Part shown: one piece after another, positions 10,688-47,083 of the stretch
How positions within the stretch are numbered: position 1 is the first letter of the stretch
Layout: each line of letters starts with the position of its first letter
Origin: Protoeuglena noctilucae
Lineage: Eukaryota
Direction: 5' to 3'
Length of the DNA stretch: 64,000 bases
NCBI GenBank assembly: GCA_958009085.1
Contig: OY253669.1
Location: 1,178,001-1,242,000, forward strand
Notes under the pieces: model-generated
The model's database searches: none
Seen by the model: the letters and a program-made list of their open reading frames with translations, nothing else
What the model was told of the DNA's origin: nothing
Position numbers and translations under genes: made by a program

Positions 10688-11725
10688 TCAGCTCCCACAG
10701 ACTCCGCACGGACTTTCCGGCCCACCTGGGTCCTCCTGTTGAGCCGGTGGGGTCCGGCCGAACGACGCCAGGCACGAGTAGTCGTCGTAGTTGGGCTGCA
10801 TGGTCAGTGGCACCCCCATGTACTTGCGGAAGTACTCCTGAGTCGGCACCTTGCACATGTTGATGCACACCGAGGCGCAGCCGCTCTCCTCCAGGTACCG
10901 ACACCGCTGCGAGGCCGAGAGGGGTGTCCATGGCATCACCACATGGGGGGTGGGAGCACGTGCGGCGCACGAGTCGCCCGCTGCGCACACCTTGATCAGA
11001 AGCCCGTTGCCCTTGCCCAACCTGCCCCCGTCCATCTCGACGTCCACCACCTCCGTCTCGCCCAGGAGCCACTGGCAAGTGAGCTGCACTCCCCACGCAT
11101 TGATCTGCATGCTCTGCTTGGCTAAGGGCCACGATACAAACACTGCAGGGAAGAGAAACGAGGAGGACGGCACGTTCACGCGTCTGCGTGGCCTCCCGCA
11201 TGGTCGACAAAGCCACCATGCTCGACACTCACTGGTGAACAGCGGGGGGATCCAGTGAGGGAAGATGGCTCGGCATACGTCGATCCCCGCCGCCTGCGCC
11301 GCGCTGGGCTGCGCGTGGCGCTCCGCGATCTGCTTCGTGAGGTCAAGGACCTTGTCGAACCCCTCCAAGTCCGACCCGTGCCCCAGAGTCTTTGACAAAG
11401 CATCCGCATAGTATCCTGTTGCCCACCGTATGCAGCGAAGAGAGAAGCCGAGGTTTCGGAGCCGCGTTCGCTCGAGCATGGCGATGCAGCGCCAAGAGCT
11501 TCGCCGTCGAGCCACCTTATTGAACGGATTGCCGTCTACGATTGAGTAGTCCGGTCTCGGGGTCGGAGGTCCTGCCTGATAAAAGCCTTCGCGGTCGACG
11601 CGCGCCCCATCAACGCCCTGCCATGGCCGCCATGTCGCGGGCAGCTGTGCGCGCGTGACGACCCCCTCTCGCCGCCAGCGGCGCCCTTCGAACGTCAGGC
11701 GGCAGGAGCACGCGCAGGCCTGCAT
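10688..11725 (-). CDS. D27: Beta-carotene isomerase D27-like protein (DUF4033)
   Basis: QLTCQWLLG; K|CRYLEESGCASVCINMCKVPTQEYF...GVPLTMQPNYDDYSCLASFG, with the conserved D27 cysteines; transit-like N-terminus. Confidence 0.9.
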   Translation of the reverse strand: MQACACSCRLTFEGRRWRREGVVTRAQLPATWRPWQGVDGARVDREGFYQAGPPTPRPDYSIVDGNPFNKVARRRSSWRCIAMLERTRLRNLGFSLRCIRWATGYYADALSKTLGHGSDLEGFDKVLDLTKQIAERHAQPSAAQAAGIDVCRAIFPHWIPPLFTSECRAWWLCRPCGRPRRRVNVPSSSFLFPAVFVSWPLAKQSMQINAWGVQLTCQWLLGETEVVDVEMDGGRLGKGNGLLIKVCAAGDSCAARAPTPHVVMPWTPLSASQRCRYLEESGCASVCINMCKVPTQEYFRKYMGVPLTMQPNYDDYSCLASFGRTPPAQQEDPGGPESPCGVCGS

Positions 11726-11993
11726 GGATCGCGACGCATGCGACGCGGAACTCGTCTTTGTGCTGCTGTCGGGAAATCAAGGTCTCTCCAGTGCGCTCTG
11801 TTCCAACGAAGCGGATTGCCTGCCTTTCCTACTGCTGTCGGCCCGCTCAGTGCTTGACTCTGCCGGCCAGTCGGGCACAAGCCCTGCGTTTCAGGCAGGC
11901 CCGCTCACCGCCTCTGCTCGCGGCGGCATCTATGCGATCATTTCGCGTGTAGCGAGCAAGCTGGTCGGGCTCGCGCTTCCGAATTTTGTTCTG

Positions 11994-13852: not shown

Positions 13853-15270
13853 CTAGGCAGGCGCTGTGGTAGCTGCCTTGACGCGCCTCACGACTTCCAC
13901 CGGCAGGGCATACCTGGGGTCGACGGGCTTGAGGCCCGGATAGCCCAGGAGGCTGAGCCCAGCAATCCCGAAGAAGGTGTGATACACGTCCACCATGTCC
14001 TCGGGTCTGTGCACATGGGGCCAGGTGCGCGTGTCGCCTCATGGGCGCCACGAGTGCCGCAACGTGCCTCAAGCCCAGACCCTTGCCTGTCCGAGATGCC
14101 GCCCTGTTCTGGATCCTGGCACTGCAGGATGAAGCGCACCAGGTGTTCTCGGTTGATCCAGGGCAGGCGCCTGCATATGGACAGGGCCGTGAGGCACCAC
14201 CACGAGTAGCACACGTCCTGCATCTTCTCGGGCCTCCCGTTCAGGCCCCCGGAGCTCGTCTGCCGCTCACACAGCCACCAGCAGAGCCTGCGGCCGACGC
14301 AGGAGAAAGCAGTCGCTGGCAGCATGTAGCCAAGCCGTCTGCCGACCCATACCCCAACCATCATGGATCTCGATGAATGCATCGCACACCTGTCCTGGTC
14401 TAGGGCCTCGAGGTGCCCGGCGAGCGCCAGGGCTCCGACGCATACGAACACCTGCCCAGCGTGGGACTCTCCGCCCGGGCGGCAACCGAACCCGCCGTCT
14501 GGGTTCTGGCATTGCAGGACCCACGACGCGGCCTTCCGCACGTCGACGGCGTCGACGCGCCCCAGCAGGTCGAGGCACAGGAGGGCGCAGTAGGTGAAGC
14601 GGCTGTCCACCTCGCCCCAAGCGTCGCCGGCAAAGGAGCCGTCCGGCCGCTGCAGCGACGCCACGAACGCGGCGATGGCTTCCGCATCGAGCTCCGACTC
14701 CTTGCCCAGCAGCGCCATGATCTGGACCGCGCTGAGCGTGTAGAGCAGGTGCGCGTCATGCCCCTCGGCCCCTCCGTACCCGCCGTTGCTGCGCCGGCAG
14801 GCGCTCACGAAGCCCGTGATGTCATCCAAGGGCATCTCCGACAGACGCCCCATGATATCCATGGCCGTCAGACCTGCGGAGCGCCGCAAGCGCACAGGAC
14901 GGGGGTGTAGTGCCGGCCATGTGACGTGCGCCCCCCTTCCGCCGCGAAAGAGGCCCCTCCGCTCACCCCAATACACCCCCGACATCCTGAAGTGCTCCGT
15001 CACGACGGACTCGAACCCCTCGCGGTCCTTGGCAATCCGCACAATGTACTGCGCCCAGGGAAGACCGTCTCGACTGTTGGACGCGGTTTGAAGCACTACG
15101 CGGCTGGGGATGTCCAGCGGACTGTTCCATGCACCGAGATGACATAATATATGCGTCTGTGCGAAGTACGGCTGTGACAGGCACGCTGTGGCGGTCAACG
15201 TGCGCACCTCGGCATGCTTGTCCACAAGGAGCGGCCCTTCCGCCGCGTCAGGGGGGGGATCCCCCGGCAT
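13853..15270 (-). CDS. RABGGTB: Rab geranylgeranyltransferase (type II) beta subunit
   Basis: [101 protein letters not shown]. Confidence 0.95.
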
Positions 15271-15519
15271 GTCTGGGCCTTCTCAAAAGACTCTACTTCG
15301 TGAAGCTCGCAGATTTACGTTCCCGCTTGTGATTACCAACGCTTTCCAGGACCCCGGCTTCACCTGAACTTTGCTGCTTTAGAGAAGGGTCGACAGACGC
15401 AGTTGCATTTACCGTCAGATGTGGCATGCAGCCAACGGGTCATGGACTTGAAAACCTCGTGCCAGAGCAGGCTCGCCGACGTGCCAGCGACACGGCAACA
15501 CACGCGAAGGCGAAGGGCC

Positions 15520-16484
15520 CTATGCGACGCCGTGCTTCTTCAGGTAGGCCTCCAGGGCAACCTTGGTGATCACACCCTCGTGCTTGGAGCCGTCCACGAC
15601 CTTGCCGTCCTTGATCAGCATCAGCGTGGGCAGCCCGTAGACCTTGAACTTCTCCACCAGCCCCGGGTTCGGATCGGCGTCAACCTTGACAACCTTGAGG
15701 TTGGAGTACGTCTGGTCCGCCCAGTCCATGAAGGGCGCGACGAGCTTGCAAGGCCCGCACCAGCTGGCCCAGAAATCCACGAGCACCGGCTGGCTGGAGG
15801 ACGCCTGCGCGACGACGTCGTTGCGGGAATTGGGAGCGGGGGTGGCGGGCGCGGAATCCGGGGGTGCAAGGTGCGATGGGCCACCGGGTGCCGAGCCCGC
15901 TGCCCAGCAGGGCGTCGCCACAAACGACGATGTCATCGGTTCGGCCTCGGCGCCCATCGACTCCGCCCGACCACAGCTGGACCCGATAGCGAGAGCGCAG
16001 AACATGCACCGCGAAGCAGGGCGCCGTGCGCGGCAGCGGCTTTCGCGGGTGCCCACCTCAATCACTTCACGCTCCCATGTGTCCTCGCCGACGCTCGCTA
16101 CTGCGCGAGTCCGCACCACGCTCCTCGCGGCGGGCTTCTCCGAGCGCGAAAAGACCACGCCGCGGGGAACACGGGTCAGGTCGACGCGAGATCCGCGTGG
16201 GAAGCGGACCGCGGCAGGGGATGGCCGCACAGGGACCTGCACTCGATCGAGGGCGGGGTGCAGGTGCCCAGCGCTTTATGACGACCACGTATAGCAACTG
16301 GATAGCGCGATCGCGTCATCGCGCCCCGGCCTCCATGTGCGGACACAAAAACTCTCGCGGCGATGCCTGGCCCCCCAGCAACGCCCAGCCTCGGCATCAG
16401 CGCCCCGATGCCACGCCCGCAACCAAGACGCCACGGTTACGCGTACGGCCGGCCCACCGTCGTCACCTGGAGCGCGAATGCCAT
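15520..16484 (-). CDS. TRXx: Plastid thioredoxin, x-type
   Basis: Exon 1 MAFALQ (16484-16467), then transit peptide; VLVDFWASWCGPCKLV active site; KVYGLPTL...SKHEGVITK resembles Trx-x. Confidence 0.88.
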
Positions 16485-25294: not shown

Positions 25295-25429
25295 CGCGAC
25301 TGCGCGCGCTGCGTGCCTGCGGGGGGGTAGCCCTGCTCGATACGGATGCAGCACCGGCGCTCCCCGTCCTCCGCCCCTGGGTGTCGCGAGACGCATCAAA
25401 AACATGCATTGCATTTTCCTTCACCTTCC

Positions 25430-25921
25430 TCAGGCCTTCCCAGCGCGCGTCCGTTCCTCGATCTGCTGGACCACCTGGGCACGGGCAGCGATCTGCCTCT
25501 CCCAATCCTCCGCGTACCGCTGGGCCGCGTTCCTGGTGGCTACCTGCGGGACAACCCGAGCTTTCTCGTAGAACGCGGTGGGTGGATCATCGCGGGGCCC
25601 AGCCGGGCAGGCGGGAGCTACCCGCGTTCTCCCTCCCCACGCATCCACCCCCGCAGCACCGCGCAGCAACAGCAGGCGTGTCGATCGTCCACGTCGCCGA
25701 AAAGCAAAAATGCATCGACGGACGAGGCGATTCGGCGTATCGAATGCTTGTGCTGTCAATTCGGGACGCAAAGGGGGCAACACGCGCTTCCCAGGCGTCG
25801 CTGTCGAGAGCGCGTCACGCGCCTGATAGAAATTAGTGTAGCACATGAACGCCTCCATGCATGCGCCCGCCAGGGCCGATGCACCAAACAGCTTCAGCAG
25901 GAATGAAGTGTCCCGGTGCAT
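25430..25921 (-). CDS. Small single-TM protein, SMIM4/UQCC5-like (~70 aa)
   Basis: MHRDTSFLLKLFGASALAGACMEAFMCYTNFYQ|VATRNAAQRYAEDWERQ...; the GAxMExFM..TxFY motif resembles SMIM4 homologues; GC-AG intron 25822-25544. Confidence 0.65.
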   Translation of the reverse strand: MHRDTSFLLKLFGASALAGACMEAFMCYTNFYQARDALSTATPGKRVLPPLRPELTAQAFDTPNRLVRRCIFAFRRRGRSTRLLLLRGAAGVDAWGGRTRVAPACPAGPRDDPPTAFYEKARVVPQVATRNAAQRYAEDWERQIAARAQVVQQIEERTRAGKA

Positions 25922-26071
25922 CGAGCTGTGAGAGGGCGCTCGGCTTCCAGTCGCGGATTGCGGCAGCTGCGTCCCGGCGACTGACGGGCCGGCGCCTTGG
26001 GCCAGGCTGACGAGCAAACAATTTCACACTGGCGCCCATGTGCAGCACGATGCACCACCACAAGCCTATCA

Positions 26072-28167
26072 TCATGCAGCAGCGCTCATGCGTCCCTCCC
26101 CCCTCCGGCGCTTGTTACAGCTCGGCTGCGCCAGGACAGCCTTCTTCTTCTCCACCTTGAGGACCACCCCCACGCCCACGACCGTCTTCAGGTCGCGCGC
26201 GGCGAAGCGACCCATGGCCTGACACTCCGCGTACGGCTCGACGCACAGGGGCCGTATGGGCCGCATGCGCACGAGACACACGTCGCCGGCCTGCACGAAC
26301 TCCGGATGGTCCTGAATCACCTCCCCCGTCTTGCGGTTCACGGTCGCCACGATCTCCTCGAACCGGCACGCCGTGTGGCTCGTGTGACAGTCGACAAGCG
26401 GCGTGTACCCCGTCACGATGCGGTTCGGGTGGTTCATGATCACCACCTGCGAGCGGGGTAGCCAGCTGAAGTCGTTTCTGTTTGCCATGCAATGGATGCA
26501 CCCAGCCCGACTGTTCGCGTCACGCTCGGCCCAGCCCTGTCCCACCTGGGCCAGGAAGGTGTCTACCACGTCCGCTGGGCTGGCGTCTGCGTCCGACGCC
26601 ACCATACCGCGGCGGAGGTCCTTGCACGAGACGCCTCGAAGGGAGAAGCCCACGTTCTGCCCCGGCCTGGCCACCTGGATGTCCGCGTGATGGATCTGGA
26701 TCGATGTGACCGTGCCCCTCAGGTCCCCGGGGGAGATCTTGACGTGCTGGCCGACGCGCAGCACCCCCGTCTCGACACGCCCCACCGCGACCGTCCCGAT
26801 CCCGGCAATCGTGTAGGCACCCTGCGCATCGATGTGGTCGGCCAAGGGTCCATGGCGACGAGCGCAGCACGGCAATCGCCCAAACCGGCGCAGCTGCCGC
26901 CTGCGGGCCGCACCTGAAGGGGGATGCGCAGCGGCAGGTGCTCGGCGCGCTGGGGCGTCCACAGGCGGTCGAGCGCCCCAGCGATGGTAGGCCCGTGGTA
27001 CCACGGCGCAGGGATGGGTTCTGTGAGGCCCTCGCCAGTCCACCCCGAGTAGGGGACGAAGGTCACTGGGAGAAGGGGCTCTCGCGGGTCAGTCGTGCGG
27101 CAGAGGTGGCGTGGCACCACCGCCTCTGCGGCAGCACTCGCCGCTCTCACCATTCTCCGGCAGGAACCCGCAGCGCCTGAGGAAGGGCGTGAGGATCCTC
27201 TGCACCTCCTCGAAGCGGTTGCGGTCCCAGGGCACGTTCAGGATGTCCATCTTGTTGACGCCGATGACGAGCTGCCGCACGCCCATCGTGTACGCAAGAA
27301 GCGCATGCTCCCTCGTCTGGCCCTTCTTGCCCGCCCCCGCCTCAAACGCGCCCTCCCGGGCGTCGATGACGAGCAGCGCTGCGTCCGCCTGGGGGAATAA
27401 CGGGCACAGGACCCCACTGTCACTGAACACCGGGGTGGCAAAGGGGCCTACTGTCGCCCAGCCAGGTGTACTCGCACCCCAACCAGGTGCACGCTCACCT
27501 GCGCGGCCCCGGTGATCATGTTCTTGACATAGTCCACGTGGCCAGGCGTGTCGACTATCTGGAACGTGTGGTGCTCCGTCTCAAACTGCAGCACGGGAGG
27601 GGACGGGACGGGCTGTGCACACGGGCGGGGAGGCAGGCGCGCCCACGCGCCTTGGCTCAGGACTCGCCTGCCGGACGCTGAAATCAATCGTGACGCCCCT
27701 CTCCCTCTCCGCCTTTAGCGTGTCCGTGACCTGCGCGCGTCGCAGGGGCGAGAATCTTTGCCGTGCTGCATGGCGGCATCGACTTGCGCCGCAGACCGCG
27801 AGGGACCGGACCGGTTGCGCAGGCAGCTCGTTGGCAAGACGATGTGTATATCTTTGCTACCGCGCGGGCCCTCCAGCGCGTCTGTCATGCGCATATCGAG
27901 GAACTGTGTTCCAACCCTAAAAGCTGGGACAGCCGCCGCGACGGCCCTGCCAGGGGCAGGGCAACCCCTTCACGCCGTGCAAAGCCTCACCCAGGCGTAG
28001 CTGAAGCTGCCCTTGCCCGCTACATTCGCCTCCCTTGCGAGCTTTTGTGCAGTTCGCTCATCGCAAGCCCCCAGCTGGAGGAGCAGGCGCCCGACGGTGG
28101 TGCTCTTCCCGGCATCGACGTGTCCGATGACTGCGAGACCCAGGTGGCCATCAGTGCCACCCTTCAT
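26072..28167 (-). CDS. Divergent elongation factor 1-alpha paralog
   Basis: G1 [24 protein letters not shown] and NKMD; EF-1alpha-type segments [53 protein letters not shown] and GRFAARD; about 6 exons, frame intact. Confidence 0.9.
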
Positions 28168-28516
28168 GGGCCCCCAGTCTCTACCTCGGCCTTGCAAGCT
28201 GCACGCTAGCCCTGCGGGCACGCGTCCAGCAGCTTTGGATTTCAAACCTGTTGTCCATCACATACACTGCGCGCGTCGCACTCACGGCCTCGTTGGCACC
28301 TCCTCACACCTGCGCTTGAAAGGCGTGCCGGCTCCTTCGCCCACACGCGCATCCTCGGGCAGCGACGACCCTAACCGGCAGTAGCTGTTGCTATGCATAC
28401 TGCGATGCACCGCTCAATGAGCCGCACACGTTCGGCTGGCGCGGGAACATTTCCCTAGGGCGTGGGGGAGCGGGTTGGGGAGAAAGTGCGGCTCGCAGAC
28501 GAGCGTCGACTGAGCC

Positions 28517-31500
28517 ATGCTCTTCTCCTCCTTGCTGTGGGGCGGCGGCGCCAAGGGCTCGGCATCAGCTCCAGAGGATGCGGCGCTCCAAGGTGACGAC
28601 GTGTATGCGCAGGGCTCGCTCTCTGCAGAGAGCCCTACGTGGCGCATTCAAGGCCATCGCGCAATCCTGTCCCATCCCTCAATGTAGGCTTTGGAAAAGC
28701 GACCGGCGGGAAGGCCCCGGCCGCCGCGAAGCGGGCTGCGGAGTCGCTGAGGGAGAAGGGGCTGCTCGTCAACCCCGTGTACGCGTCGCCGAACATCGTG
28801 ATCTTCGTATACGACGAGGACGCGTGAGTGGCCGTTTCGGGACGAGCGCGCTGGCCGCATGTCCGCACAGCCTGCTCCACGGCACGATCCGCTCGCCCGG
28901 CAGGACGCCCGCCCGCCCTCTTTCTGGCCGCAGCTTCGTGCGCGCGTCCCGCGAGCACATGCAGCACCCGACGGACCACGCGTACTCCACTCCCCGCAAG
29001 CGCTTAGCCGCGCAGGTGTCCGCACGCGCCTCCCGAGGCTCCACGCCCCAGCGCCCGCCCCGGGCGTCGTCCCGCGACGGCGTCAGCCCACCTCCGAGCA
29101 AGGTGCACTCGGTGGCGAGGTTGAACGACGCGAGAGACGCCGACCCCCCGCCTTCGCGCCTGCAAGTGGCTTCGCACACCGAGACCGCCCCTCCTCACGC
29201 GGCCCGGAGCCTCCATGCCGCCATCGAGGCAGCCAGGTCAGGGACTTGCTAACGACTCTGCCGCCTTCTCCAGTGGCCTTGCAGCTGCAGGGCCTGCAGG
29301 ACGACAGCACACGGCAGGGCGGATGTCGTGACGTGACGTGACGAGAGGTGCACCGTCCTTCGTTGCAGGCCACCGGCCAGGGAACCCTCAGCGGACGGCA
29401 GCGGTGCTTCGGGTCCCGAGGGCGACGGCGAAGGTGGCAGCGTCGATGGGGTCTCGTCAGACGCATCGAGAGGGCGCCCCCCGGCACCACGGGCGGTGCG
29501 TCCCAGCAAGCAGCCCGTCAATGGCGACGTGCCCAACCCTCACTACGTTTACCTGTCCGCGGTGCAGCAGTTCCTCTGCGAGGTCCACGGGAGGGCCTTC
29601 GCGGTCGCCAATGCCGGGCCGGCCCTAGCCACCATCGGTGAGCTCAGGATGGCGCCCCAGCTTGGCCTGCCACTGTTGATGAGCTCCCAGCGCCCCTCGC
29701 TGCCCTGACCCACTTGTTTCGCGCATTCACATCCTTCCATTGCATTGACATTTGACGCCACATCCGTGCCCTTTTCGACACTCGGCGTGACCCACTGTCT
29801 ACGCCCGCACCGCACCTCTCGCCTTGCCCCCGCAGTGCCCCATGCCTCGGAGCTGTTCTATCACGTGGCTCCCGTCATTGAATTCCATGAGGACGACGCC
29901 TCCGCCTCAGTGCCGGAGCTCGACTGCGCCCAGCCGCCCATCGCCTCGCCCCATGCCCACTTCACGTGAGCGCCGCCATGCACAGCTGTACCTCACACAG
30001 CCGCCCCTCACAGATATCTCCCCTCGCATTCTGCCCTCACGCAGCCGCCCCTGTTCATCTGCAAGGCCCTGTCCACGCGGCACCCTAGCTTGTTGCAATC
30101 TGTTCCCTATGTCACGTCATGAACCTGACCCACCCGCCACGCCCTCCCTGAGCAGGTGGGAGTTCGAGGCATTCCCCGGCACGCCTCCCCTGGACATCCT
30201 GGTGCGCGTGGCGTATTCGATGGCCAACTGGCTCAAGGGCTTCCCCCTGCGCAACGCCCCGCCAGCGGACAAGGGGCGGCCTAGGGACAGGGTCGTGGCC
30301 CTGCACGTCAATGCCGGTCTCGGGTCCCCGCACCACACGGCCTACTTCCTGGCGGCGTGCGCGCTGTACCTGGCGGAGGGCACGGCGGGGCACCCTCGGT
30401 TTCGGTCGGTGGAGGAAGCCTACTGCGAGCTGGTCAACCACGCGCCCATGCCGGACTCCAAGGACCCAGGTGGGGGCATGGCGCCCAACAGTGTTAATAG
30501 CCATCCATCCACAAGGGCGCGCGTGCCTGGGTGTCTGGTCGGCTAACGCTATCTGCGTGTTGGCTCTCTGAACTAGATGACTGACTTGAGATTCGGGATC
30601 AGTCAACGCTGTCTTGATAAACCGAGTGGATGACCTGAGTGTGGCCTGCCATCCACTGCCCCTGCAGAGCTGGAGGAAGCGGCGCAGCGACTGACGCCGT
30701 TACTGCACAAGCGCAGCCACGGGGGCAGCAAGGGGTCGGGCTCGCCGGGGACCTCCCTGGCGCGATGGGACGTGCTGACGCGGGTGGACCTGAGCCGGGG
30801 CGTGGTCGAGTCAAGCGTGCTGGGCTCGTCACGCGTGGTGGTGCCGCCCGTCCTCAGCAGCCAGGCGCAATACGGCAACTACCTCCAGAACCTCACGGCG
30901 CGCGGGCGCACGGCGATGCTGGCGCGCGGGGGCGTGCCGGGCGGGGCGCGCCTCCTGCTCCGCAACTTCGTCGTCTTCTCGCTCCCCTCCTACCACCTTT
31001 TCCACGGACGCCGACTGGAGACCTCCGGAGTGATGGGCGCCGCGTACAACACCCCCCTGGACTACAACGCGGAGTTCACGGGTGGCGACGTGCGGTTCGG
31101 TGTCGCCTATGCGGCGGTGTATCAGCGGGGGCAGATGGTGTGGGACGGCGACAGCCAGTCGCAGGCATCGGGGTCGTTCTTCAAGACTGAGTTCGGCGGA
31201 CAGCCGGTGGGTGGGACGTGGAGGGGAGATGTGCCTTGGGATGTGTCGTGGCAGCACGCACGGACTGCATTCATTGTTGTGCCTTTTACTGAGACAGGCC
31301 CGTGCTGCGCCCGTCGCCAGGCTCGCTCACCCCACGCCCGCCTTTTCGCCTGCGCAGATCGAGGTGTGCGGGGACGTCTCCATCGCCGTCTGGCGCTCCT
31401 TCGACCATTTCGAATACAAGGACCCTCCAGCCATGGTGAGGCGCCAGTCATGCACGTTGCCACTGTTAACACGCGTCATGCCCACTCACTTCCCATGCAC

Positions 31501-34500
31501 CCACCGACTTGTCTGCTCACCCAGGTCCTGGCCTTCCACACCGCTTACGTCGACACGCACCGGGGCGGCGGCGAGCGTGTCATTGACGTTCACTTCTCGC
31601 GCCGCCACGGCTACCTCGACTTCCCGGAGCTCATGGGCACCCGGCAGCCCCTCATCCTGGGCTTTCAGGTTAAGGATGAGGCCGGCCTTGACCAGAGCCT
31701 GATGCACGTGTTCCTGGCGGAGCCGCCCCTGTACCAGGCGGCGAAGGTCGACCTGGACCGGGCGGTGCAGGGAACGACGGTGAGCAGCGGGGTTGGTGCG
31801 GGCGAGGCGGGGTGATTTGTCAAAGGGCCAGGTGCTGGGGTGTGGTAAGTTTGTGACCGGTGCAGAGTTTGCTTGGTACGCCTCGACAATTGCATTGGCC
31901 GACTGTGCTTAGTACATGTCGTGCCTTGACCAACGTGGTTGTCGACTGCCCCAATCGTGTCGACTGTTCCCAGAACGACCTTCTGAGGGACGCCACGGTG
32001 ACGCCGGACGAGATGCGCGAGATGAGCACGCGGGAGGTGATGTTACAGACCGGCCGCATTTCATTGGAGGACCTGGAGCGTTGGGAGGAGGAGCAGCGGA
32101 GGGTCCGCAAGAGAACGGCGGATGGGGCGAATGGGGCGGGGGGCGACGGTGAAGAGGAGGAGGGCGAGGAGACGAGGGATGCCAAGGTTAGGGAGACTGA
32201 GAGTTTGAGCTCAGTAGGGCAGAGGTGGTTGGCTAATAGGAAGTGGATGCAGACAGCCATGGCACTGAGGGACGTGCTTCTGACTTAACCATGACACTGA
32301 TGGCCTTGCTCCACCGCAGGACGCTCATCGGGACGAGATGATGGCGGCCTTGGCGGCCCAGCGGGTGCGCCAGGCGGACCGTGCGGGACCGTCCGCCACC
32401 CCCCAGGCACAGCGCGGCGTCGGTGGACTGAGGGAAAGCTCGGGGGCAGAGGGCCCCAGGTACGAGTCTCTATCCACTCAGCTGGAGTCGATGCAGGCGG
32501 TGGGGTCGCGGGGGACCGCGCGGGCGGACGCAGAGGGCGGGGTCGTGGGTGCCGGGGTTGGGGCGGGGCCGCTGCAACGCAAGAGCTTCATGGAGAGGGC
32601 AGAGGAGAGGATGGGGGCGCTGAGGGAACGGATTGACGCGGGAGAGCCCCCACGCGTCGAGAGACAGAGCGAAGTGGTGCTTTCGGAAGCAGCGGGAGTG
32701 GCGGGGCCTGGGCCGGGGTCCGTTGCACAGGGTCGCGCCCCAGCCGCGCCGCCCCTGCCACCCTCGCTGGCCGCAGCGCGAAAGGCGCCGAGCGATGCGG
32801 CAGAAGGGGACAAGGCGAAGGAGGCAAAGAGCCCAGCGCCAGGGCCCCCCAAAGCCCCGCCCTTGCCGCCCAAGCTGGGAGGGGCGGGGGCTGCGAGTGG
32901 GCCCGGCCCACCCCCGCCACCCCCACTCCCGCCCAAGCTTGCCGCTGCGGGGGGTGCCGGCGAGGCCGCACCGCCCCCTCCGCCCCTCCCACCTCAGCTG
33001 GGGGCCGCACCCGCGTCCAAGCCACCCCCGCTACCACCGTCGCTCGCCCGGCTCCGCAGCACCCCCGTGGGGGGAGTCCTGGGCGGTGCCGCCGCGGACG
33101 GTGTCCCGAGCGCCGCTCCCGCGGACGCGCCTCAGCCGTCGCCGGGGCGGCCCTCTGTGTCTGGCGGGCCGTCGCGCCCCGGGGCGCCCCCCGCGCCTCC
33201 GCTGGGGTTACGCCGCTTCCACTCCCTGGGCCCCAACGCCCCCCGCCTGCGCCGGTTCTTCTGGCAGCAAGTGAGCCAGGTCGACGAGTCGGTGTTTGCG
33301 GAGATCCTCGACTCTGGGGGCGCGCGGCAGTCAGGGGCCGGGGTTCTGCCCACCCCAGGACGCGCCTCCACGGACGGAGGCAGCTCGGGCACCCCGAGGA
33401 TGGCGCTGAGCGCGGAGCTCGCGTCGCGCATCCGGGACATGTTTGCGTTGCCGAGCGAGGACGACGAGCGGGCCCAGCGGGTGATGGAGCGCGTGGGTCG
33501 TGGACGTGGGCCGGCGGTGCTCGAAACCTCGCGGGCCAACAACGTGAGCATCATGGCCAAGGCGCTGGGCGGGGAGCCGGAGGAGGTGTGCCGGCAGGTG
33601 CTGTCGGGCGACGGGCGGCTGCGGGAGGAGCACGTGGCGTTGCTGATGAAAATCGTGCCTTCGACGACGGAGACGCGGAAGCTGAGGGCGTACGAGGGCC
33701 GCGAGGCGGAGCTGATACCCGCGGAGCGCCTCATGCTGGCGCTGGCGGGCATCCCGAGGCTGAGGGCGAAGCTAGACATCCTGATGTTCACGAGGGAGTT
33801 CGAGGGACTGGCGGAGGAAGTGGAGCAGGTGAGAGAGCAGGGTGGTGGGTGGCTGATGAAGTGGGGCAGGTGAGAGCAAGAGAGCAGGGCGGTGGGTGGC
33901 TGATGCAAGCTGCGAGCCTTCCCAGCTAGCAACCTTTGGCACCCACAATGTCTACTTGTCTCACAGGCCGCGTCTTTGGTGACGGCGGCAGCCCAGGCGG
34001 TGCGGGAGAGCAAGGCTCTGAGGAACGTGCTGCGCCTCGTCCTGACGGTGGGGAACGTGCTGAACGACGGGTCCCAACAGGGCAACGCCGTCGGAGTGCG
34101 CCTGGAGTCGCTGTTGAAGCTCCAGGACGTGAAGGTCGTGGCGCCAGTGGGAGGGCCCGACTTGGGGTCACGTGCAGCAGGTGCGGGGCGGGGGCATTGG
34201 GGTACATGTGAGATGAAATCCCGACGCCCTGTGTCCTTATCACACCCACACCAACACTGCTTTCAGCCATTCGTGTGCCACCGCCACCTCTGCCTCCCCG
34301 CTGCCCACCTCGCAGGCGATGGGGAGTCGGGCCCCGCCGGGACGGCGCAGCCATCCAAGCCCCCCCCAGCCCAGGGCGCGTCTGTAGCGCAGGCGTGGCG
34401 GGCGGCGGTGTGGGGTCGGGCTTCGAATCTCCTTGAATTCGTCGCCGCCGCTTTCCTTCTCGAGTCTGGGTGGAAGCCCGGCGCTGGCGGGGACGACCGG

Positions 34501-35243
34501 GGTGGGTGGGCGCCGAGGGACGTCGGCAACGGTCGTGGCGGTACCCGAGGGGCCGCGGCACCCGCCCGGTCGCTCCCGGGCCTGCTGCCGGGCCTCTCAG
34601 TGCTCAAGGAGGCGTGCGGGCGCGTGAAAGAGGACCTGGTGGATGTGCCGGCGCAGCTGACGGCCCGGATGCAGCAGTGCCGGCGCGAGATGCAGGCGCT
34701 GGGGGAGCAGAGGGAGAAGGAGGTGAGGGAGTGGATGGGGATGTTGGTTGGTGGTTTTGCATGGGTGCCATGGTGAGGTATGACCGAAACCCCTTGGACC
34801 CCTGTGAATGTTTTTCAGAACTTCATATCCGCACTCATCAGAGACCCATCAGACCCGTCCGTCTCTGACACGCAGGCGCCGTTCGCGACCATGCTGGCGG
34901 CGTTTGTGCAGGGAGCCGAGGAGCGGCTGGGGAAGGTCCAGGGGCAGGTGGAGGCGGCGAGGAAGGCCGCAGAGTCCCTGGTGGTCTTCATGGCAGAGCC
35001 ACGCGAGGTGGGGGAGATGCTGCTTGGCTCAGAGTCATTGCGCTGTGCTGGGGTGGGATGGCGGCGCAGGGGATGAGACGAGCTGCAACGATGGGCAATG
35101 GTTCACAGAGACTAATATCAATACTAGTGACTCTACTACCCCCGCAGACGGCTCCCGAGGACGTCATGCTGATGCTGTGGCAGTTCTCTGCGCGTTTCGA
35201 CATCGCAGTGGCCAAGGTCGCCGGCACGCGCGTGGCCTCATGA
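28517..35243 (+). CDS. Class II-type formin (PTEN-like phosphatase + C2 + FH1 + FH2)
   Basis: Start MLFSSLLWGGG; PTEN-like part (SMANWL...VVALHVNAG, QAQYGNYL) and C2 part (VCGDVSI, LAFHTAYV); polyproline FH1 ~32750-33210; FH2 (LRRFFWQQV, RANNVSIM, LIPAERLM, VLTVGNVLNDGSQQGNAVGVRLESLLKLQDVK, SNLLEFV). Confidence 0.9.
33818..33906 (+). repeat. Imperfect ~41-48-nt direct duplication spanning a formin 5' splice site
   Basis: AAGTGG(A/G)GCAGGTGAGAG...GCAGGG(T/C)GGTGGGTGGCTGATG occurs twice in tandem. Confidence 0.85.
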
Positions 35244-35325: not shown

Positions 35326-38300
35326 TCAGTGTGGTGGCTGCCGTGCCACCGATAGGCCATGCGATAGATAGCTTGTGAACGCTGTCCCGTATGCACAGTA
35401 AGTCACGCATCCATAAGAGCTTGCGACCATCGCGTGCCTACATCGGTTGCCGTCCGCGGCGAGGCCCCAGGGGTCCCTGGCCTGTAGCATGGGCGGAGAG
35501 GCTCGTGCCCATGAGAGGATGGTCTCGTATCGTGCTGCGCTGAGGGCCCACGAGGCGTCGCGCTCCATGCCCCTCCGCTGCAGCCCAGCCCAGGTGTCCG
35601 GCTCGCTGCTGTAGACGCGCAGTGCCTCGTCCAGGCTGTGCAGCATCGCGTCCTTGGTGCAGGGCATGAAGGTGAAACCGGTGCCGATGCTGTCCCATGG
35701 CTCACTGCGAGGGGCGCAGCGCAGAGAGGGGTGTGAGTGTTTGTGCCTTGTGACGGAGCGATGTGATTGGGCCGGCTCACTAGCGCTGGTGACCCGAGGC
35801 AGGTGACGGGCGGACAGGGCAAGGAGCTATCAGCAACCAACTTAAGGCAGGCAGCAGGTGTGACCATGGCTATTACTACGCAAAAACCGTGCGTTTCGCT
35901 CACTTGGCAAAAGGGCTCGCGTCCTCCACCGTGTCTCGCAGCCCGCCCACGCACGTGACCACGGGGATGGTGCCGTATCGCATGGCGTAGAGCTGGTTGA
36001 GGCCGCACGGCTCGAACCGCGAGGGCATGAGGAGCATGTCGCAGGAGGCGATGATGCGGTGGGCCATCTTGACGTTGAAGTCGACGATGCCGCGGAACAG
36101 GTCGGGGTTACGCTCCTGGAGAGGGAAGGGGGGGTGACGGGGTGTCGGCAGCAAAGGGGTGCGGCGCAGGGAGGGGCGACAGGAAGGACGCGCGATCCGG
36201 GATGCTGGGGCCTTGCACCTCCTGCACCCACTTCATGTGCCCCACATCTCATAGTAGATCATCTTCCCGCCCTCACCTGCGTCTCTCGCACCCACTTCTC
36301 GAGCCCCACGTCCCCCGACCCCAGGACCACGACCTGGCACCCCCGGGCGCACATCTCCGCCGCCGCCTCCAACAGCACGTCCGGCCCCTTCTGAGTGTCC
36401 AGCCGGCCGACCCACCCCACGAGGGGCATCCCCGCACTCACGGGCAGCTTCAGCTCCTGCTGCAGGCGCAGCTTGCACGCCTCCTTGCCGGCCAGGTTGC
36501 GTGCCGTAAAGGACTCGCCCCATAGGTGGGGGTCGTTCGCGGGGTCCCAGCTCTCCACGTCCACGCCGTTCACGACGCCGTTCAGGTCCAGCTCCCTCTG
36601 CGGGACAGGACGCACGACGAGGCACGGGTCGGACATTGGCAGGGCATGGGGTGGTGTGGCGCTCGAGCCTTGCGGTGATGTGCGAACACAGGCACGGGGG
36701 CCATAAGGAGGGCAAAGTGGTGCCTCTGCCAGCAGCATCGTCACCTTGGCGAGGATCTTCTCGAGGCCGTACCCGAAGGTGGGCGTCATGATTTCAGAGG
36801 CGTAGCCTTGCGACACGGTGACCAGGCGGTCGGCCGTCATCAAGGCCGCTTGCATGACGTTGACGGAGGTGCCGTTCTGAGTCGAAAATGGTAACTTAGA
36901 AGCCGTGTCAGGTGAAAGCGGGCGCGTGGCCGCTCAATCTGCCTGAGCTGCGAGTGAGCTGCGGGTGCGTTTGTGCCAACCCCAGTACGGGCGCGCGTGC
37001 TGCACGCACACACCTTGACGAATCGGAATCGGTCGAACCACTCGCGCGAGAGCCCGAACGCATTGAACGCCGACTCGGGGAACACGCCCTGGTACGCGAG
37101 GTTGTGGATGGCAAACACGGACCTGGCGTCCTGCGAGGGCATACCGTGGCTGACCGTGGCTGACTGTGGCTGACCGAAGCCCTGCAGCGCCGCCAGAGCT
37201 ATTTTGGGTGCGTCGATCCGCAAACGAGCAAAGAGCTCGCAGTCGTGGTCATTGCAAGCGACGCGGCAACGCTGGGAGCGTCGCTTGCGTGACGGTCTCA
37301 TCATCACCTTGTAGACGCCAGAGGGTCGGAAGCGCGACGCCAGGTACACCGGGACGAGTCCGGAGTGCCAGTCGTTGGCGATGAACACGCAGTCCTGCCC
37401 CATGACTTCGCGCAACAAGACACGGCCCGGGGTCGGGTCCGTACCATCGGGGTCGTCGGGGTCTGGAGCGTCCAGGGGCAGCACCAGGGGCACCTCCAGT
37501 GCCGCCAGACTGCGGGACGAGGGGCGGAGGGATGGGATGGGCTGTGGGGCGGCAGGGCAGATGTGGGTGCGTACTGACGGTATCCACCGTGGCAGAGGTC
37601 ATCGTGTCAGGCAGGCGATGCAGGGAGACTTATAGGAGGCTGGAGACATCCATGACACTTGGGAGCGGCTCGCCTGAAGAGCGCAAAGCGCCAGTGGTTG
37701 TCGTCGTAGTCCCGGCCATTGGCGCCATACAGGCCGCCCTTCCTGTGGAAGGCCGGGTGGTCGATGAACACGTACGACACTCCGTTCTTGCGGCAGTGGA
37801 AGAAGGAGACGGTCTGCTTGTCCCCGGGCTTGACCTCCAGTGTCTTTCGCATCCCCGTGTCCTCCAGGGCTTGCAACTCCGCGTCGCCCTTGCCGCCCGT
37901 GAGGTAGCGCGGCGTCACCACCACGACCCTAGAGGGGCAGAGATCGGTGGCGGGTTCACAGTGGCGTGAAGGAGCCGAGGGAGGGTGTCGTGCCATGCGT
38001 GGGGTGTACTAACAACTGCGGAAGCTGGAGGGGTCGCGTGCGCACCTGTGCCCGCGTGCAGCCAGCGCCTGGGGCAGCGCCCCGGCCACGTCGCCCAGGC
38101 CGCCTGTTTTGGTCCAGGGCGCCACCTCGGCAGCGACGAAGACGATCTTCATAGGGTCTGACGTGCGGGGCGGGGGCTTGCGGATGTGCCACCGCCGACG
38201 GAGCCGGGGAGGGGACGCGGTGGATGCGGAGGGATCGCTATCCTCCCACGACGGGTCGTCGGCCCGCGCAGCCTCCGCCGCGACGTCCCACGCCTGCGTA

Positions 38301-38843
38301 CCTAGTGTCGACGCGTCCGCTCCGCCCCATACCACCTCGTCGGCCGAGCTGGAGATCCCAGTAGCTGGGTAATATTGGTTTGATGGTGACGAAGCGGATT
38401 CACTGCGCGCCTCGCCGTCAGCTTCCGGCTCAGGAGGGACGAACTGTCCCGCACCGTCCTGCGTCCAGGCCACGCCGCTCGTTCGCCTTCGGCCACGCAA
38501 CGGCACCGCGTCTATAATGTCGATGGGAAGCAGTCAATCACGACCGCCCGCTTGCCTTGCTTCCCTCGAGACGCGCCATGAGGTCCGTCCATGCGTTGTG
38601 GAGGAGCCGCAGCTCCTCCTGCAGCCTCCTCTCATCTTCCTCCGCCTTGTCTCCCTCACCGCTGGGCTCATTGGTGTCGGGAGTGGCACACACCGCGAGC
38701 CTGGGCTTGGCGGGGCCGTTGGAATGCCATCGTGTCCGGATGTTCTGGACACGGGGCCGTACACCCCGCGGTAGCGACGAGGAGCAGCCCGCCCGCTCCG
38801 GCGAGGGCGGCCCCGTAGGACGTGCAAACGGGAGCGCCGACAT
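35326..38843 (-). CDS. Soluble starch synthase (SSI/SSII group, GT5)
   Basis: Transit peptide MSALPFARP...; [80 protein letters not shown]. The stop position is approximate. Confidence 0.95.
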
Positions 38844-43494: not shown

Positions 43495-43899
43495 CCTTGT
43501 TGGCAGAGGAAGCGCGCTGCGGGGTTCAATCGGGACCCTCGCAGGTGTTCCGCGCCAGGCGACCCTAAGCGACTCGTGAGCTACTGCCTTGCGATGCAAT
43601 TGATGTGGCTGAGATGCTGTGAAACCGCAGAGAGGGAGGAGATGCACGGAACGCGGGCATCGGCACCCGCCAGTGGACGTCAGCGTCGGGCCCGAAATCA
43701 AATCTCCGGACCCTCTGCGGGCAGATTTCATGCCCAGCAACGCTAGTTTGTAACATCTGACGACGTCACATCAAGCGACGGCGCGGTAGAAGGCGGGAGA
43801 ACGAGGGGGACGACGGGCGAAACATGCAGCAACCCTGCTGCTCTCGGCGCGAAGAGAGGAAGAACTTGGCGGCCGTGGAGCTCTTCTTTAAAGGTTCGG

Positions 43900-43940
43900 G
43901 GCGGAGATGGCGGAGATGGCGGAGATGGCGGAGATGGCGG
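43900..43940 (+). repeat. 9-bp tandem repeat (GGCGGAGAT)x4.5
   Basis: Read directly from the sequence; encodes MAEMAEMAEMA if translated from 43907. Confidence 0.95.
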
Positions 43941-45761
43941 CAGGGGCGGAGAGCGCTGTCCAGGTGTGCTGCATCGGTGAAGCTGCTTGCTCCTTGATCG
44001 CAGAGGAGGCAAAGCAGCAGAAGAGGCAGATGAGGAGGAACCGGGGAGGCACGAGCCAGGCGGGTGCAAGCTCAGCTTCGCGTGATAGCGACGAGCGGGA
44101 AGAAGAAGTCGGTGACTGCGAGGCAGGCTCGTCTGTGGACGAGGCGTGCGAGGCGGTAGGCGCCCTGGCCCTGGAGGAGGCGCAGGAAAGGCTCGCTTCC
44201 GTGGTCCAGGTGTGTTGCCGCAACGACCCGCAGCTATCTTTAAACTCCTCCGATCGGGTCCCTGCCCCAGCGACACTGAAAGTCGCTCAGCTGCACACGC
44301 GCAGGCGAGCGGCCAGCACTCCCAGAGGCGCGTGCGCACGCGTGCCAAGGTCAGCAGCAACGCCGTGTCGCGGTTCGACCTGGTCTCCGGCGCCCTCAAC
44401 CTGGCGAAGCGGTGGACGAGCGAGGCGTCTGTCATGGCGCCCATCGTCACTTCGTTCACGGGCGTCGCTGAGGTCGGGCTCGACGGGGGCGGTCTGTCCT
44501 TCGAGCTCCTCACTAGTTTCTTCGAGAGCGCTTTCGACCCCGATGAAGGGCTTTTCACGCTGCCAGAGGGGGCCGCCGACGATTCCAGGCAAGCCTCTCA
44601 CGTTGCCGTTGACCCCAGCAGTGCCTGGCTGGGGCATTACCACAGCACGACACCCCCTCGCATCTCCCCCGCTTGCCAGGATGCTCCAGGACGACGCCCT
44701 GGTGCTCCCCGCCCCCCTCGGCTCCACCGCCCGGTCCTGCGATGACTTTGTGGCGTTCGGGCGCCTCCTCATCAAGGCGAAGGTCGACGCGGTGCCCGTT
44801 CCCAACGTGCTGGCGCCGAGCTTCTGGAAGTACATCCGCGACCCGGAGATGCTGGGGCAAGACGCGCTCGGCATCGACGACCTGAGGGCCTTCGACCCCG
44901 TCTACGCCGCACACCTGTCCGCCTTCGCAAGCGCACCCGAGGACGAGGTCGAGGCGTGGGGCGTGTACTCCAACTCTCCTGGCGGCCAGGACAGCCCCGG
45001 ATCCCCGGTGACTGCATCCTCGAGGGCAGAGTACATCGACAAGGCCATACGGAGCAAGCTCGTGGAGGGGTGAGCGGGGCGGCGGTGCATGCACATGGGC
45101 GTGGCGTACGAGTTCGTCGCACGTACACTGATGTGCGGCCCCTCGCCCTGCTGACGCAGGCGGGAGGGGTCGCTGGCCGCCATCCGGGAGGGAATGCGCC
45201 TCGCTGCAGGTGTGTTTGACGTCGCCTGCAGCCCCACGTCGCTGGCGACTGCGGCCCAGACGGCGGCGCTGTTCGGGTCCCGGCGGCTCACGGCACGTGA
45301 CCTGCTCAGCTGCCTGGACTTCGCGGCCAGCACCGAGCCGCCCGCCTCGCGCATTCGGCCCTGGCTGGAGGATACCGTGGCCCAGTACTCCGAGCACCAG
45401 CTCGCTCAGCTGCTGATGGTAAGGGGCTGCTCTGTGTGGGTTGAAGCCCACAGGAGCTGCGTGGCCCTTTGCAACCGACCCCCCGCCCCTCCTGCAGCTC
45501 CTCACCGGCCTGAAGGGGATTCCCATCGGGGGGCTGCGCAACCCCGAGGCCAGCCCGCCGCACCGCATCGCTGTCCTGGTCTGCGACTGCAGCGCGTGCT
45601 CCAAGGCCCTCAGGGGTGCTGCTCCGCACGGCTGCGAGGGGCTGCCCAAGGTCTCGACGTGCTTCTGGACGTGCCGCTTGCCGCTCTACTCGAGCCAACA
45701 GGTCCTAGGCACGCGCTTGCAGATGGCCATGACGTGGGCCAGCGGCTTTGGCTCAGAGTAG
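43907..45761 (+). CDS. Stand-alone HECT-domain E3 ubiquitin ligase
   Basis: EVGLDGGGLSFELLTSFF...FDPDEGLF, FGRLLIKA, LAPSFWKYI, DDLRAFDPVY, SRAEYIDKAI, LLM|LLTGLKGIP, LPKVSTCFWTCRLPLYSS..L..RLQMAM....FG. The catalytic Cys is present. An alternative start at 43824 is possible if an intron runs ~43894-44003. Confidence 0.88.
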
Positions 45762-46202: not shown

Positions 46203-47083
46203 ATGGCCGACCCACGCCTGGAAGTCATCAAGAAGTCGATCCGGGAGATCCCGGACTTTCCCAAGGTCAGGGCCAGCCAGCGAGCTCACGAGAGCAGCTT
46301 GCGTCGCCAGCCTGTCCACGGAACATGCCTGCGGCATCAGGGATCGCGGGGAGGGCACCGCTCTTGGCATGTGAGCTAGCTCCGCGCCGGCTGAACCCCC
46401 GCCGCAGAAAGGCATCGCCTTCAAGGACATCACGACGTTGATGCTCGACCCGGTGGCTTTCAAGCACACCATCGACCTCTTCGTCGAACGGATCAAGGAC
46501 AAGCGCATCGACGCCGTCGTCGGGTTCGAGGCGCGTGCACCGCGCCCGCGGGGATCGCCGCTTGCCGGGTTGCGAGTCTGCACACGCAAAACGTACCCGC
46601 TTGCCTTGCCCCGCAGTCTCGCGGCTTCTTCTTCGGCCCCACGGTGGCCATGGCCCTCGGGTGCGCCTTCGTGCCCCTGCGCAAGCCCAAGAAGCTCCCC
46701 GGCGAGACGATCGGGGTCCACTATGCTTTAGAGGTGCGCAGACACACACGATTAGACGCGGGCGCCCTGTCAGTGCTTGAGCCAGGGGCAAGAGACAACG
46801 TGGGCGGCCTGCGAAACGAGGCGCGACGCCCCCATCTTCCCTGCAGTACGGGACGGACCGCATTGAGATGCACCTCGGGGCCGTCACTGCTGGGCAGCGC
46901 GTGGTGCTCATCGACGACCTCCTCGCCACCGGTGGCACCATGGCTGCGGGGAAGGCCCTCATGGACCAGGTTGGGGCGGAGGTGGTGGAGGCCCTGTGCG
47001 TCATCGAGCTCCCGGCTCTCAAGGGCCGCGAGAGGCTCCAGGGCGTCCCTATGTACGTGCTGGTCGAGATGGAGGGGGACTAG
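46203..47083 (+). CDS. APT: Adenine phosphoribosyltransferase
   Basis: [42 protein letters not shown] and the PRPP-binding motif [13 protein letters not shown]; 4 exons. Confidence 0.97.

Follow-up and report, generated by a model that had tools for sequence, protein, structure and literature searches.

Does the head-to-head placement of an EF-1alpha-like gene and a formin gene mark a joint function in the actin cytoskeleton, or are two unrelated genes simply neighbours? We analysed this pair in a 64-kb window, by which we mean the whole stretch of DNA under study; its host is apparently a high-GC marine alga, probably green. We consider it probable (about 0.7) that the locus consists of nuclear genes unrelated to each other, both intact and both transcribed, an accessory EF-1alpha copy and an FH1-FH2 formin, which have a common short bidirectional promoter region and whose adjacency is incidental.

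Gene models and transcripts of the divergent pair

The earlier note had placed an EF-1alpha-like ATG at 28167 on the minus strand and a formin ATG at 28517 on the plus strand, and our gene models agree with these positions: the genes are divergent, with 349 nt from ATG to ATG. The features of the EF-1alpha-like gene and of the intergenic region were as follows.

26008..28268, minus strand: transcribed span (mRNA) of the EF-1alpha-like gene, from RNA contigs
26072..28167, minus strand: EF-1alpha-like CDS, 7 exons, 1368 nt including the stop at 26072, 455 codons (455 aa), from Pfam domains and RNA joints
28167-27991, 27730-27668, 27585-27499, 27388-27151, 27065-26914, 26821-26546, 26446-26072, minus strand: EF-1alpha-like exons
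27586..27667, minus strand: EF-1alpha-like intron 2, a GC-AG intron with donor GCGAGT
28181..28258, minus strand: upstream ORF of 25 codons in the EF-1alpha-like leader, from a scan of the leader (28268-28168)
28168..28516: intergenic region that separates the two divergent start codons, 349 nt, 64% G+C

The EF-1alpha-like gene contains five GT-AG introns and one GC-AG intron, and all six were removed in RNA contigs from marine metatranscriptomes. The joint across the GC-AG intron (27585/27668) was present in the RNA of runs X1 and X3, with plus-strand ends CT..GC. The translation of the spliced frame was identical, letter for letter, to a database protein (P0002). A spliced 1518-nt contig from runs X1 and X3 extended to 28268, which makes the 5' leader 101 nt or longer, and a loose poly(A) end at 26008 in run X4 indicated a 3'UTR of approximately 64 nt. 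Besides the upstream ORF, the leader contains a second upstream ATG at 28263, which is directly followed by TGA. Contig depth in run X1, a measure unsuited to ranking expression, was 110 for the EF-1alpha-like gene and 8-32 for the formin, indicating that the EF-1alpha-like gene is not silent.

Positions 28168-28268 belong to the EF-1alpha-like leader, and at most 248-249 nt are left between the 5' end of this transcript and the formin ATG; the promoter region must therefore be common to both genes. A scan of 28168-28516 found no TATA-like hexamer. Both genes were transcribed in the same RNA runs, as judged by spliced marine metatranscriptome contigs, and the locus has the head-to-head orientation and the short common intergenic region of a coupled bidirectional pair.

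Divergence of the EF-1alpha-like protein

Pfam searches matched GTP_EFTU, GTP_EFTU_D2 and GTP-eEF1A_C on exons 1, 4, 6 and 7, giving a three-domain architecture. The best PDB matches were to eEF1A (479 bits), compared with 300 for eRF3, 292 for HBS1L and 140 for EF-Tu. Like canonical eEF1A (yeast 5o8w/1f60, rabbit 5lzs), with which it aligned over the full length at 475-479 bits, the protein has three domains, the motifs GHVDxGKST, DxPGH, NKMD and SGW, and DCHTxH in domain III. The GTPase motifs G1-G4 are intact, domain II is largely conserved and most of the aminoacyl-pocket region is kept. The protein scored 530.7 with both family profiles, which is above the cutoff of NF008969 (NCBIfam EF-1alpha subfamily; 502) and narrowly below that of the TIGR00483 equivalog (540.1).

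BLASTP identity was 51% to canonical EF-1alpha and 36% to the EFL-type representative P0216. The protein belongs to the same GTPase superfamily as EFL, and its A at position 106 and G at 250 are the EFL states. In contrast, it has DCHTSHT where EFL has FVR.GRs, and DFSVRQ where EFL has aCTTKA; the EFL form FVRTGRA occurred in only one of 123 rows, that of P0216. EFL carries five insertions, according to the part of Atkinson (2014; PMC3938643) available, whereas our protein has none relative to rabbit or yeast eEF1A except one residue near 209. An assignment to EFL or eRF3 was ruled out, the scores, identity and motifs all giving an eEF1A type. The protein also differs from canonical animal and fungal eEF1A, lacking a 12-residue insertion.

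Within the eEF1A type, the protein is far from its canonical members. Across 106 canonical EF-1alphas, its identity was 50% at the median and never above 52%, compared with a median of 78% among the canonical proteins themselves. At the 236 columns conserved in at least 95% of the sequences, it keeps 169 residues (67 changed), while a divergent oomycete copy (P0143) keeps 167 and a metagenomic protein (P0125) 149. It is thus far more divergent than canonical homologues, the property that Kamikawa (2013) requires of a divergent EF-1alpha. P0125, 57% identical, was the sole close relative found in a search among billions of proteins. The copy fell outside the canonical EF-1alpha clade both in a FastTree tree (clade of 50 rows, support 99) and in a quick IQ-TREE tree (20 rows, support 99), and in both it paired only with P0125 (support 100). 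In the quick IQ-TREE analysis it grouped with the eukaryotes (44 rows, support 97), apart from archaeal-like genes. Long-branch effects are possible in these placements.

We also searched for the loci of relatives. A metagenome scan with an alignment of P0002 and P0125 and generic patterns matched at least 592 stretches and confirmed at least 521; the 79 loci among the matches listed were only archaeal or bacterial GTPase loci, with at most 47% identity. The metagenome matches listed did not include the organism of the window itself, nor the contig that carries P0125. A viral-contig scan with P0002 gave three pattern matches and no relative, and a prokaryote-genome scan with P0125 gave one bacterial locus (26% identical) and nothing relevant.

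The contact sites for eEF1B-alpha, as named in the available text of Atkinson (2014; PMC3938643), were located by alignment to yeast eEF1A. The DIALWK loop is replaced by DFSVRQ, keeping two of six residues. T106 is changed to A, D250 to G, G255 to A and MR to LK, while D35 and Q249 are retained; the motif DCHTAHI of eEF1A reads DCHTSHT (5/7 kept). The eEF1B-alpha contact sites are thus not conserved as a set.

A probable accessory copy of EF-1alpha

The minus-strand gene encodes a strongly diverged, three-domain GTPase of eEF1A type in which several contact sites for eEF1B-alpha are altered. Previous work offers a precedent. A divergent eEF1A exists alongside EFL in Chlamydomonas, Volvox, diatoms and others, as given in the accessible part of Atkinson (2014; PMC3938643), where the green-algal rows of Table S1 were machine-read from a PDF and entries may stand under the wrong column. 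The same portion of that paper describes eEF1A in EFL-bearing algae as evolving with constraint apparently lost and proposes a ratchet model. Chlorophytes are reported to be mostly EFL users. From what is available of Kamikawa (2013; PMC3699394), the dual-EF class is defined by co-occurrence with EFL and by EF-1alpha expression that is low relative to EFL, and dual-EF species were predicted to be still undetected among green-lineage algae.

Our copy resembles the divergent EF-1alphas of dual-EF species in several respects: it is of eEF1A type, lies far beyond canonical divergence and outside the canonical clade, is changed at key sites, matches the oomycete copy P0143 in its level of divergence (169 versus 167 of 236), and comes from a host lineage (algae, probably green) that usually has EFL. 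Unlike the divergent representatives of that class, it groups with none of them and only with P0125. Judged from the sequence, the pattern is one already known, that of divergent EF-1alpha copies in EFL-using eukaryotes, green algae included. The copy would then be one of those remodelled EF-1alphas that lineages using EFL retain next to it, and would be a working GTPase with an ordinary mRNA level, not the bulk elongation factor. This reading leans on divergence and on literature priors; within the 64-kb window, domain searches found no EFL. If the alga also has EFL, it would be another dual-EF species, and the copy comes with a transcript record from natural populations. The erosion at the eEF1B-alpha contact sites would fit the ratchet model of elongation-factor replacement.

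Could the copy instead be the principal elongation factor of an alga without EFL, fast-evolving and fully functional? The intact G1-G4 motifs, the conserved domain II and a gene that is spliced and expressed are in line with this, as are the NF008969 score above the cutoff and, weakly, the depth above that of the neighbours in run X1. The TIGR00483 cutoff is missed only narrowly, and with all GTPase motifs and most of the aminoacyl-pocket region kept, the copy may still serve in translation. However, an identity of only 50-52% to canonical proteins that share 78% among themselves, changes at 67 of 236 near-invariant positions, the DFSVRQ contact loop and the reported use of EFL by chlorophytes speak against a principal factor. 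Further hints against a bulk factor, all weak, were a codon bias no stronger than that of the formin (Nc 37.5 and GC3 0.86, compared with 38.3 and 0.85), the two upstream ATGs in the leader and a contig depth close to the neighbouring gene's. We regard a principal factor as unlikely.

A decaying relic that is functionless and heading for loss, as in the ratchet model, would be the opposite case. The loss of constraint on eEF1A in EFL-bearing algae, as far as described in the available part of Atkinson (2014; PMC3938643), is consistent with decay, and so are the changes at functionally named sites and the still greater divergence of the sister protein P0125 (149/236). Against decay, the frame stays open across the seven exons, every splice site is intact, and the transcript is both spliced and polyadenylated. 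P0002 and P0125 have each retained the GTPase motifs despite an identity of only 57%, which suggests purifying selection. An intact ORF over 7 exons, expression and a 57%-identical relative with G motifs all point to maintenance of the gene, and a relic appears distinctly unlikely.

The formin and the proposed actin link

The plus-strand gene encodes a formin with FH1 and FH2, a nucleator of actin filaments. Its features were as follows.

28517..35243, plus strand: formin CDS, 15 exons, approximately 1556 aa, open frame, GT..AG at all 14 introns
28517-28592, 28688-28823, 28934-29236, 29369-29637, 29836-29965, 30156-30469, 30668-31206, 31358-31435, plus strand: formin exons 1-8
31525-31779, 31974-32186, 32320-33828, 33967-34180, 34316-34722, 34876-35007, 35148-35243, plus strand: formin exons 9-15
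30156..31779, plus strand: candidate PTEN-like phosphatase and C2 region in exons 6-9, a sequence reading with Val at the place of the catalytic Cys
32749..33045, plus strand: FH1, five P(2-6)LPPxL tracts at model residues 915-1013, from a regular expression on the translation
33238..34134, plus strand: detected part of FH2, PF02181 profile positions 8-237 of 372, with an intron (33829-33966) inside

RNA joints confirmed eight of the 14 formin introns (2, 4, 8, 9 and 11-14). Introns 1, 3, 5, 6, 7 and 10 come from the model, and the missing RNA cover there, including that of the 5' end, is uninformative. By sequence logic, the start is probably the ATG at 28517, which depends on intron 1 (28593-28687, GT..AG, frame kept) and lies just after an in-frame stop at 28511.

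PF02181 matched exon 11 (E 2.3e-18) and exon 12 (8.7e-16) above the 34.8-bit cutoff, and the PDB formin FH2 chains 4eah and 9az4 matched exon 11, indicating an FH2 domain. Of residues 900-1075, 29% are proline, and FH1 precedes FH2. Exon 13 had no Pfam match. The full-length protein gave one match among 5658 candidates from a protein database, an FH2 protein from a plant (29% identical), and the formin was therefore analysed by single exons.

Plant-type class II formins have the order PTEN-like domain, FH1, FH2. Our formin resembles them in having a long region before FH1-FH2, in which the sequence may be read as a P-loop-like stretch (Val for the catalytic Cys) followed by a candidate C2-like stretch. 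Unlike in class II formins, the candidate PTEN-like domain had no match, and FH2 was detected only at 8-237 of 372 profile positions. For this N-terminal region, Pfam searches of six exons, N-terminal ones and others, and PDB sequence searches found no PTEN-like or C2 domain, and Atlas leads to Cys-phosphatase families (0.79-0.84) were weak. The long N-terminal region may be PTEN-like.

The earlier note had suggested that, if the alga translates with EFL or another EF-1alpha, this divergent copy may have been kept for work in the cytoskeleton, such as bundling F-actin or binding the formin, and that the two genes may be co-regulated from a common bidirectional promoter as an actin module. Several observations agree with this proposal: the genes are head to head, with no more than 249 nt from the EF-1alpha-like transcript to the formin ATG, transcripts of both occur in the same runs, and the eroded eEF1B-alpha contact sites fit a reduced role in translation. 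It is also known that eEF1A bundles actin, its binding of F-actin and of aa-tRNA being mutually exclusive, according to the available part of a review. That divergent EF-1alpha copies keep cytoskeletal roles is a speculation already published, as the accessible text of Kamikawa (2013; PMC3699394) indicates.

A formin paired with an EF-1alpha-family protein, both linked to actin, recalls a case in yeast. Umikawa et al. are reported to have found in 1998 that the yeast formin Bni1p binds EF1alpha; the literature that we searched contained no Bni1p-EF1alpha interaction. This precedent would in any case concern the canonical, translating EF-1alpha, and it is a protein-protein interaction between products of genes that are not neighbours, whereas here there is gene adjacency alone.

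The actin module rests on one post-hoc adjacency in a gene-dense window, and we consider it very unlikely. Its fullest form, in which EFL relieved this EF-1alpha of bulk translation and the protein, no longer dependent on eEF1B-alpha, became a dedicated actin-bundling or formin-binding GTPase under one bidirectional promoter with the formin, is more doubtful still. If true, a picoplanktonic alga would have a compact module for actin assembly whose genes are linked, and divergent EF-1alpha copies would gain, through the link to the formin, a concrete function for the first time; at present the link is one of adjacency only.

We favour two unrelated genes. Their adjacency would be incidental, which is a prior and not a result, and any co-regulation would be what head-to-head neighbours commonly show and would not be evidence of joint function. 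The adjacency was noted once and post hoc, in a window whose 64 kb contain at least 15 genes with domains, and by itself it is no more than chance alone would give. The earlier note had cautioned that divergent gaps are common in this window. This was a reasonable caveat, as there is at least one more divergent pair supported by Pfam, a D27-like gene and a VTT gene, whose first in-frame ATGs are approximately 610 nt apart.

The EF-1alpha-like gene and its transcript

The EF-1alpha-like gene model matched, letter for letter, the database protein P0002, whose record derives from JGI and Logan contigs of about 1.5 kb. The gene and the features of its leader are as follows.

28167 (ATG) to 26074-26072 (TGA), minus strand: EF-1alpha-like coding sequence, 7 exons, 1368 nt, 455 codons
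27586-27667, minus strand: intron 2, the GC-AG intron, with donor GCGAGT; spliced at the exact site in RNA contigs of two runs
28263, minus strand: upstream ATG 1, ATG-TGA with an immediate stop
From 28258, minus strand: upstream ATG 2, opening a 25-codon uORF

The stretch was present in four marine metatranscriptome runs of a single study. All six introns, five of the GT-AG type and one GC-AG, are spliced out in a 1518-nt RNA contig (runs X1 and X3). The 5' end of this contig lies at 28268, and the mRNA ends in poly(A) at 26008 (run X4). The recorded leader carries two upstream ATGs (28181-28263, minus strand), an unusual feature for a bulk translation factor. A neighbouring transcript (25424-25971), represented by a contig of roughly 2.2 kb that skips 279 nt at 25542/25822, stops at 25971, 37 nt from the poly(A) site at 26008; Pfam matched none of its ORFs.

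The G+C content of the window is 64-72% throughout. The codon bias of the EF-1alpha-like gene resembled that of the adjacent formin (Nc 37.5 vs 38.3; GC3 0.86 vs 0.85), and both fell inside the range of the other coding pieces of the window. Contig depth, a measure unfit for ranking genes, was of the same order for the EF-1alpha-like gene and the neighbouring gene (110 vs 79 in X1; 26 vs 37 in X3).

A divergent EF-1alpha with altered exchange-factor sites

Pfam identified GTP_EFTU, GTP_EFTU_D2 and GTP-eEF1A_C in the exon translations. Against solved structures, P0002 scored 475-479 bits with eEF1A, at most 470 bits with archaeal aEF1A, 300 bits with eRF3, 292 bits with HBS1L and about 140 bits with EF-Tu. 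Its NCBIfam score of 530.7 was above the cutoff of the subfamily model NF008969 (502) and narrowly under that of the equivalog model TIGR00483 (540.1). An EFL identity was ruled out, as BLASTP gave 36% identity to the EFL-type representative P0216 vs 51% to canonical EF-1alphas. Among the 123 tabulated rows, P0216 was the only one with the EFL motifs described in Atkinson et al. (2014, PMC3938643), in the forms TCTSKD and FVRTGRA.

P0002 showed 50% identity (maximum 52%) to 106 canonical EF-1alphas, which have a median identity of 78% among themselves. When 5.8 billion proteins were searched through a word index and 8000 candidates scored, all normal-length matches beyond P0002 itself were canonical EF-1alphas with 48-53% identity. 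Among 1.84 billion cluster representatives, searched exhaustively, one protein was closer than these, the metagenomic P0125 (534 aa, from one 4651-nt JGI contig), which was 57-58% identical. In P0125 the P-loop and switch I are separated by some 57 additional Pro/Ala-rich residues (~58-115); this insertion could be real or an unspliced intron in the metagenome gene call. Where the canonical set is at least 95% conserved (236 columns), P0002 keeps 169, P0125 149 and P0143, a divergent copy from the oomycete Globisporangium, 167. Globisporangium is a genus split from Pythium. Pythium includes species with both EF-1alpha and EFL, as reported in Kamikawa et al. (2013, PMC3699394).

FastTree analysis (149 rows) paired P0002 with P0125 (support 100). 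The canonical clade (50 rows, support 99) did not include the pair, which fell on the EF-1alpha side relative to a clade of 40 rows with an eRF3-annotated member (support 100). A quick IQ-TREE run (65 rows) recovered the pair (support 100) and grouped it with the eukaryotes (44 rows, SH-aLRT 97), separate from seven metagenome genes that are uninterrupted and archaeal-like. Here too the canonical clade (20 rows, support 99) did not include the pair, and the tree gave no finer placement. This exclusion may be a long-branch effect.

The GTPase motifs of P0002 are intact in the alignment (18 residues together with SGW), and domain II, including a 13-residue stretch, is near-canonical. The 12-residue insertion of animal and fungal EF-1alpha is missing. 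We scored the sites that contact the exchange factor eEF1B-alpha, as named in Atkinson et al. (2014, PMC3938643), by alignment to yeast eEF1A.

Sites of eEF1A and their state in P0002
D35: D, kept
DIALWK (74-79): DFSVRQ, 2/6 kept
T106: A, the EFL state
Q249: Q, kept
D250: G, the EFL state, found in a Plasmodium EF-1alpha too
G255: A, changed
DCHTAHI: DCHTSHT, 5/7 kept
MR (427-428): LK, changed

As judged from the alignment, P0002 appears to have a working GTPase core that is eroded at its exchange-factor docking sites. A relic without function seems improbable.

The source of the window is probably a green alga: a GT5-type starch synthase and a D27-like carotenoid isomerase are encoded in it, alongside further nuclear genes of ordinary kinds. 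According to Noble (2007), EFL is present in every chlorophyte group sampled, and EF-1alpha was undetected by PCR in three prasinophytes. Cocquyt (2009) describes EFL as encoded by Chlorophyta, with Acetabularia as the exception. Chlamydomonas and Volvox are listed with EFL and a divergent eEF1A with apparent loss of constraint (Atkinson et al., 2014, PMC3938643; Table S1, machine-read). Kamikawa et al. (2013, PMC3699394) report divergent EF-1alpha co-occurring with EFL in diatoms, oomycetes, goniomonads, apusomonads and fungi, and predict undetected cases in Viridiplantae. A divergent EF-1alpha beside EFL is an established class. The copy described here would join it, and it shows a clear pattern of erosion at the eEF1B-alpha sites.

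The 64-kb window contained no second elongation factor gene. Divergence, codon bias, upstream ATGs and contig depth point, indirectly, to P0002 being an accessory copy; that it is the alga's principal elongation factor is unlikely, if slightly less so than a relic. At a probability of roughly 70%, we favour an accessory, remodelled EF-1alpha that would lie next to the formin by chance and share its promoter.

The formin and the shared intergenic region

28517 (ATG) to 35243, plus strand: formin coding sequence, 15 exons, 1556 aa, GT..AG at 14/14 introns
35903-38533, minus strand: GT5-type starch synthase, downstream of the formin and convergent

RNA joints displayed GT..AG for 8 of the 14 formin introns. 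The first intron (28593-28687) was not among them, so the ATG at 28517 rests on sequence logic: a stop at 28511 lies just 5' of it, the proposed intron 1 preserves the frame, and exon 2 has no in-frame ATG downstream of the stop at 28594. FH1 comprises five P(2-6)LPPxL tracts (residues 915-1013). Pfam detected FH2 in exons 11 (E 2.3e-18) and 12 (E 8.7e-16), where the match spans positions 8-237 of the 372-position profile, and exon 11 matched solved FH2 chains; six other exon translations tested gave no Pfam match. Exon 13 (34316-34722), the expected second half of FH2, was without a Pfam match; it starts with about 35 low-complexity residues (Gly/Pro/Ala-rich) followed by an NLLEFV motif. The FH2 domain is either strongly diverged or insertion-bearing. 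The protein search returned no full-length relative, its sole match being a 29%-identical plant FH2 protein.

About 770 residues precede FH1. They include a putative, unconfirmed PTEN-like stretch (VVALHVNAGLG, with Val at the catalytic Cys position) and then a C2-like stretch. Weak Atlas leads connected the PTEN-like candidate to Cys-phosphatase families; Pfam and PDB sequence searches of the N-terminal exons gave no PTEN-like match. A minus-strand transcript ends in poly(A) at 35259, 16 nt beyond the formin stop codon, and a 4061-nt RNA contig continues past the formin through 35600; the formin and the starch synthase must therefore overlap or abut at their 3' ends.

The start codons at 28167 (minus) and 28517 (plus) are divergent and 349 nt apart, in agreement with the spacing of about 350 nt in the earlier note. 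The EF-1alpha-like leader occupies 28168-28268, leaving at most 248 nt to the formin ATG, so the promoter region must be shared. The intergenic region has 64% G+C and contains no TATA-like hexamer. In compact genomes, genes often stand head-to-head across a short gap, and such pairs tend towards mild co-expression regardless of function. The window has at least one other Pfam-supported divergent pair, D27-like (minus) and VTT (plus), with first in-frame ATGs at 11725 and 12338; the earlier note's range of 185-400 nt for such gaps was only partly checked.

The earlier note had proposed a co-regulated actin module. An interaction of Bni1p with EF1alpha has reportedly been observed. According to a review, eEF1A bundles actin, and its binding to F-actin and to aminoacyl-tRNA is mutually exclusive. 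The functional idea is already in print, as Kamikawa et al. (2013, PMC3699394) speculated on a cytoskeletal role of divergent EF-1alpha copies. The pairing is most likely incidental, and a real actin module is very improbable.

Other genes in the window

After exclusion of 14 of the 109 selected ORFs, which lie inside the EF-1alpha-like gene or the formin, 23 of the remaining 95 candidates had Pfam matches. The following were assigned by Pfam on the ORF.

2-1999, plus: MIF4G
3577-3888, plus: EF-hand
9762-10193, plus: fatty-acid hydroxylase
10691-11776, minus: D27-like carotenoid isomerase
12251-13099, plus: VTT
13856-15282, minus: prenyltransferase
15523-16275, minus: thioredoxin
43892-45758, plus: HECT
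46781-47080, plus: phosphoribosyltransferase
52119-52328, minus: RabGAP-TBC
56526-57109, plus: peroxidase
57471-58750, minus: Vps4-like AAA
60417-60782, minus: AAA
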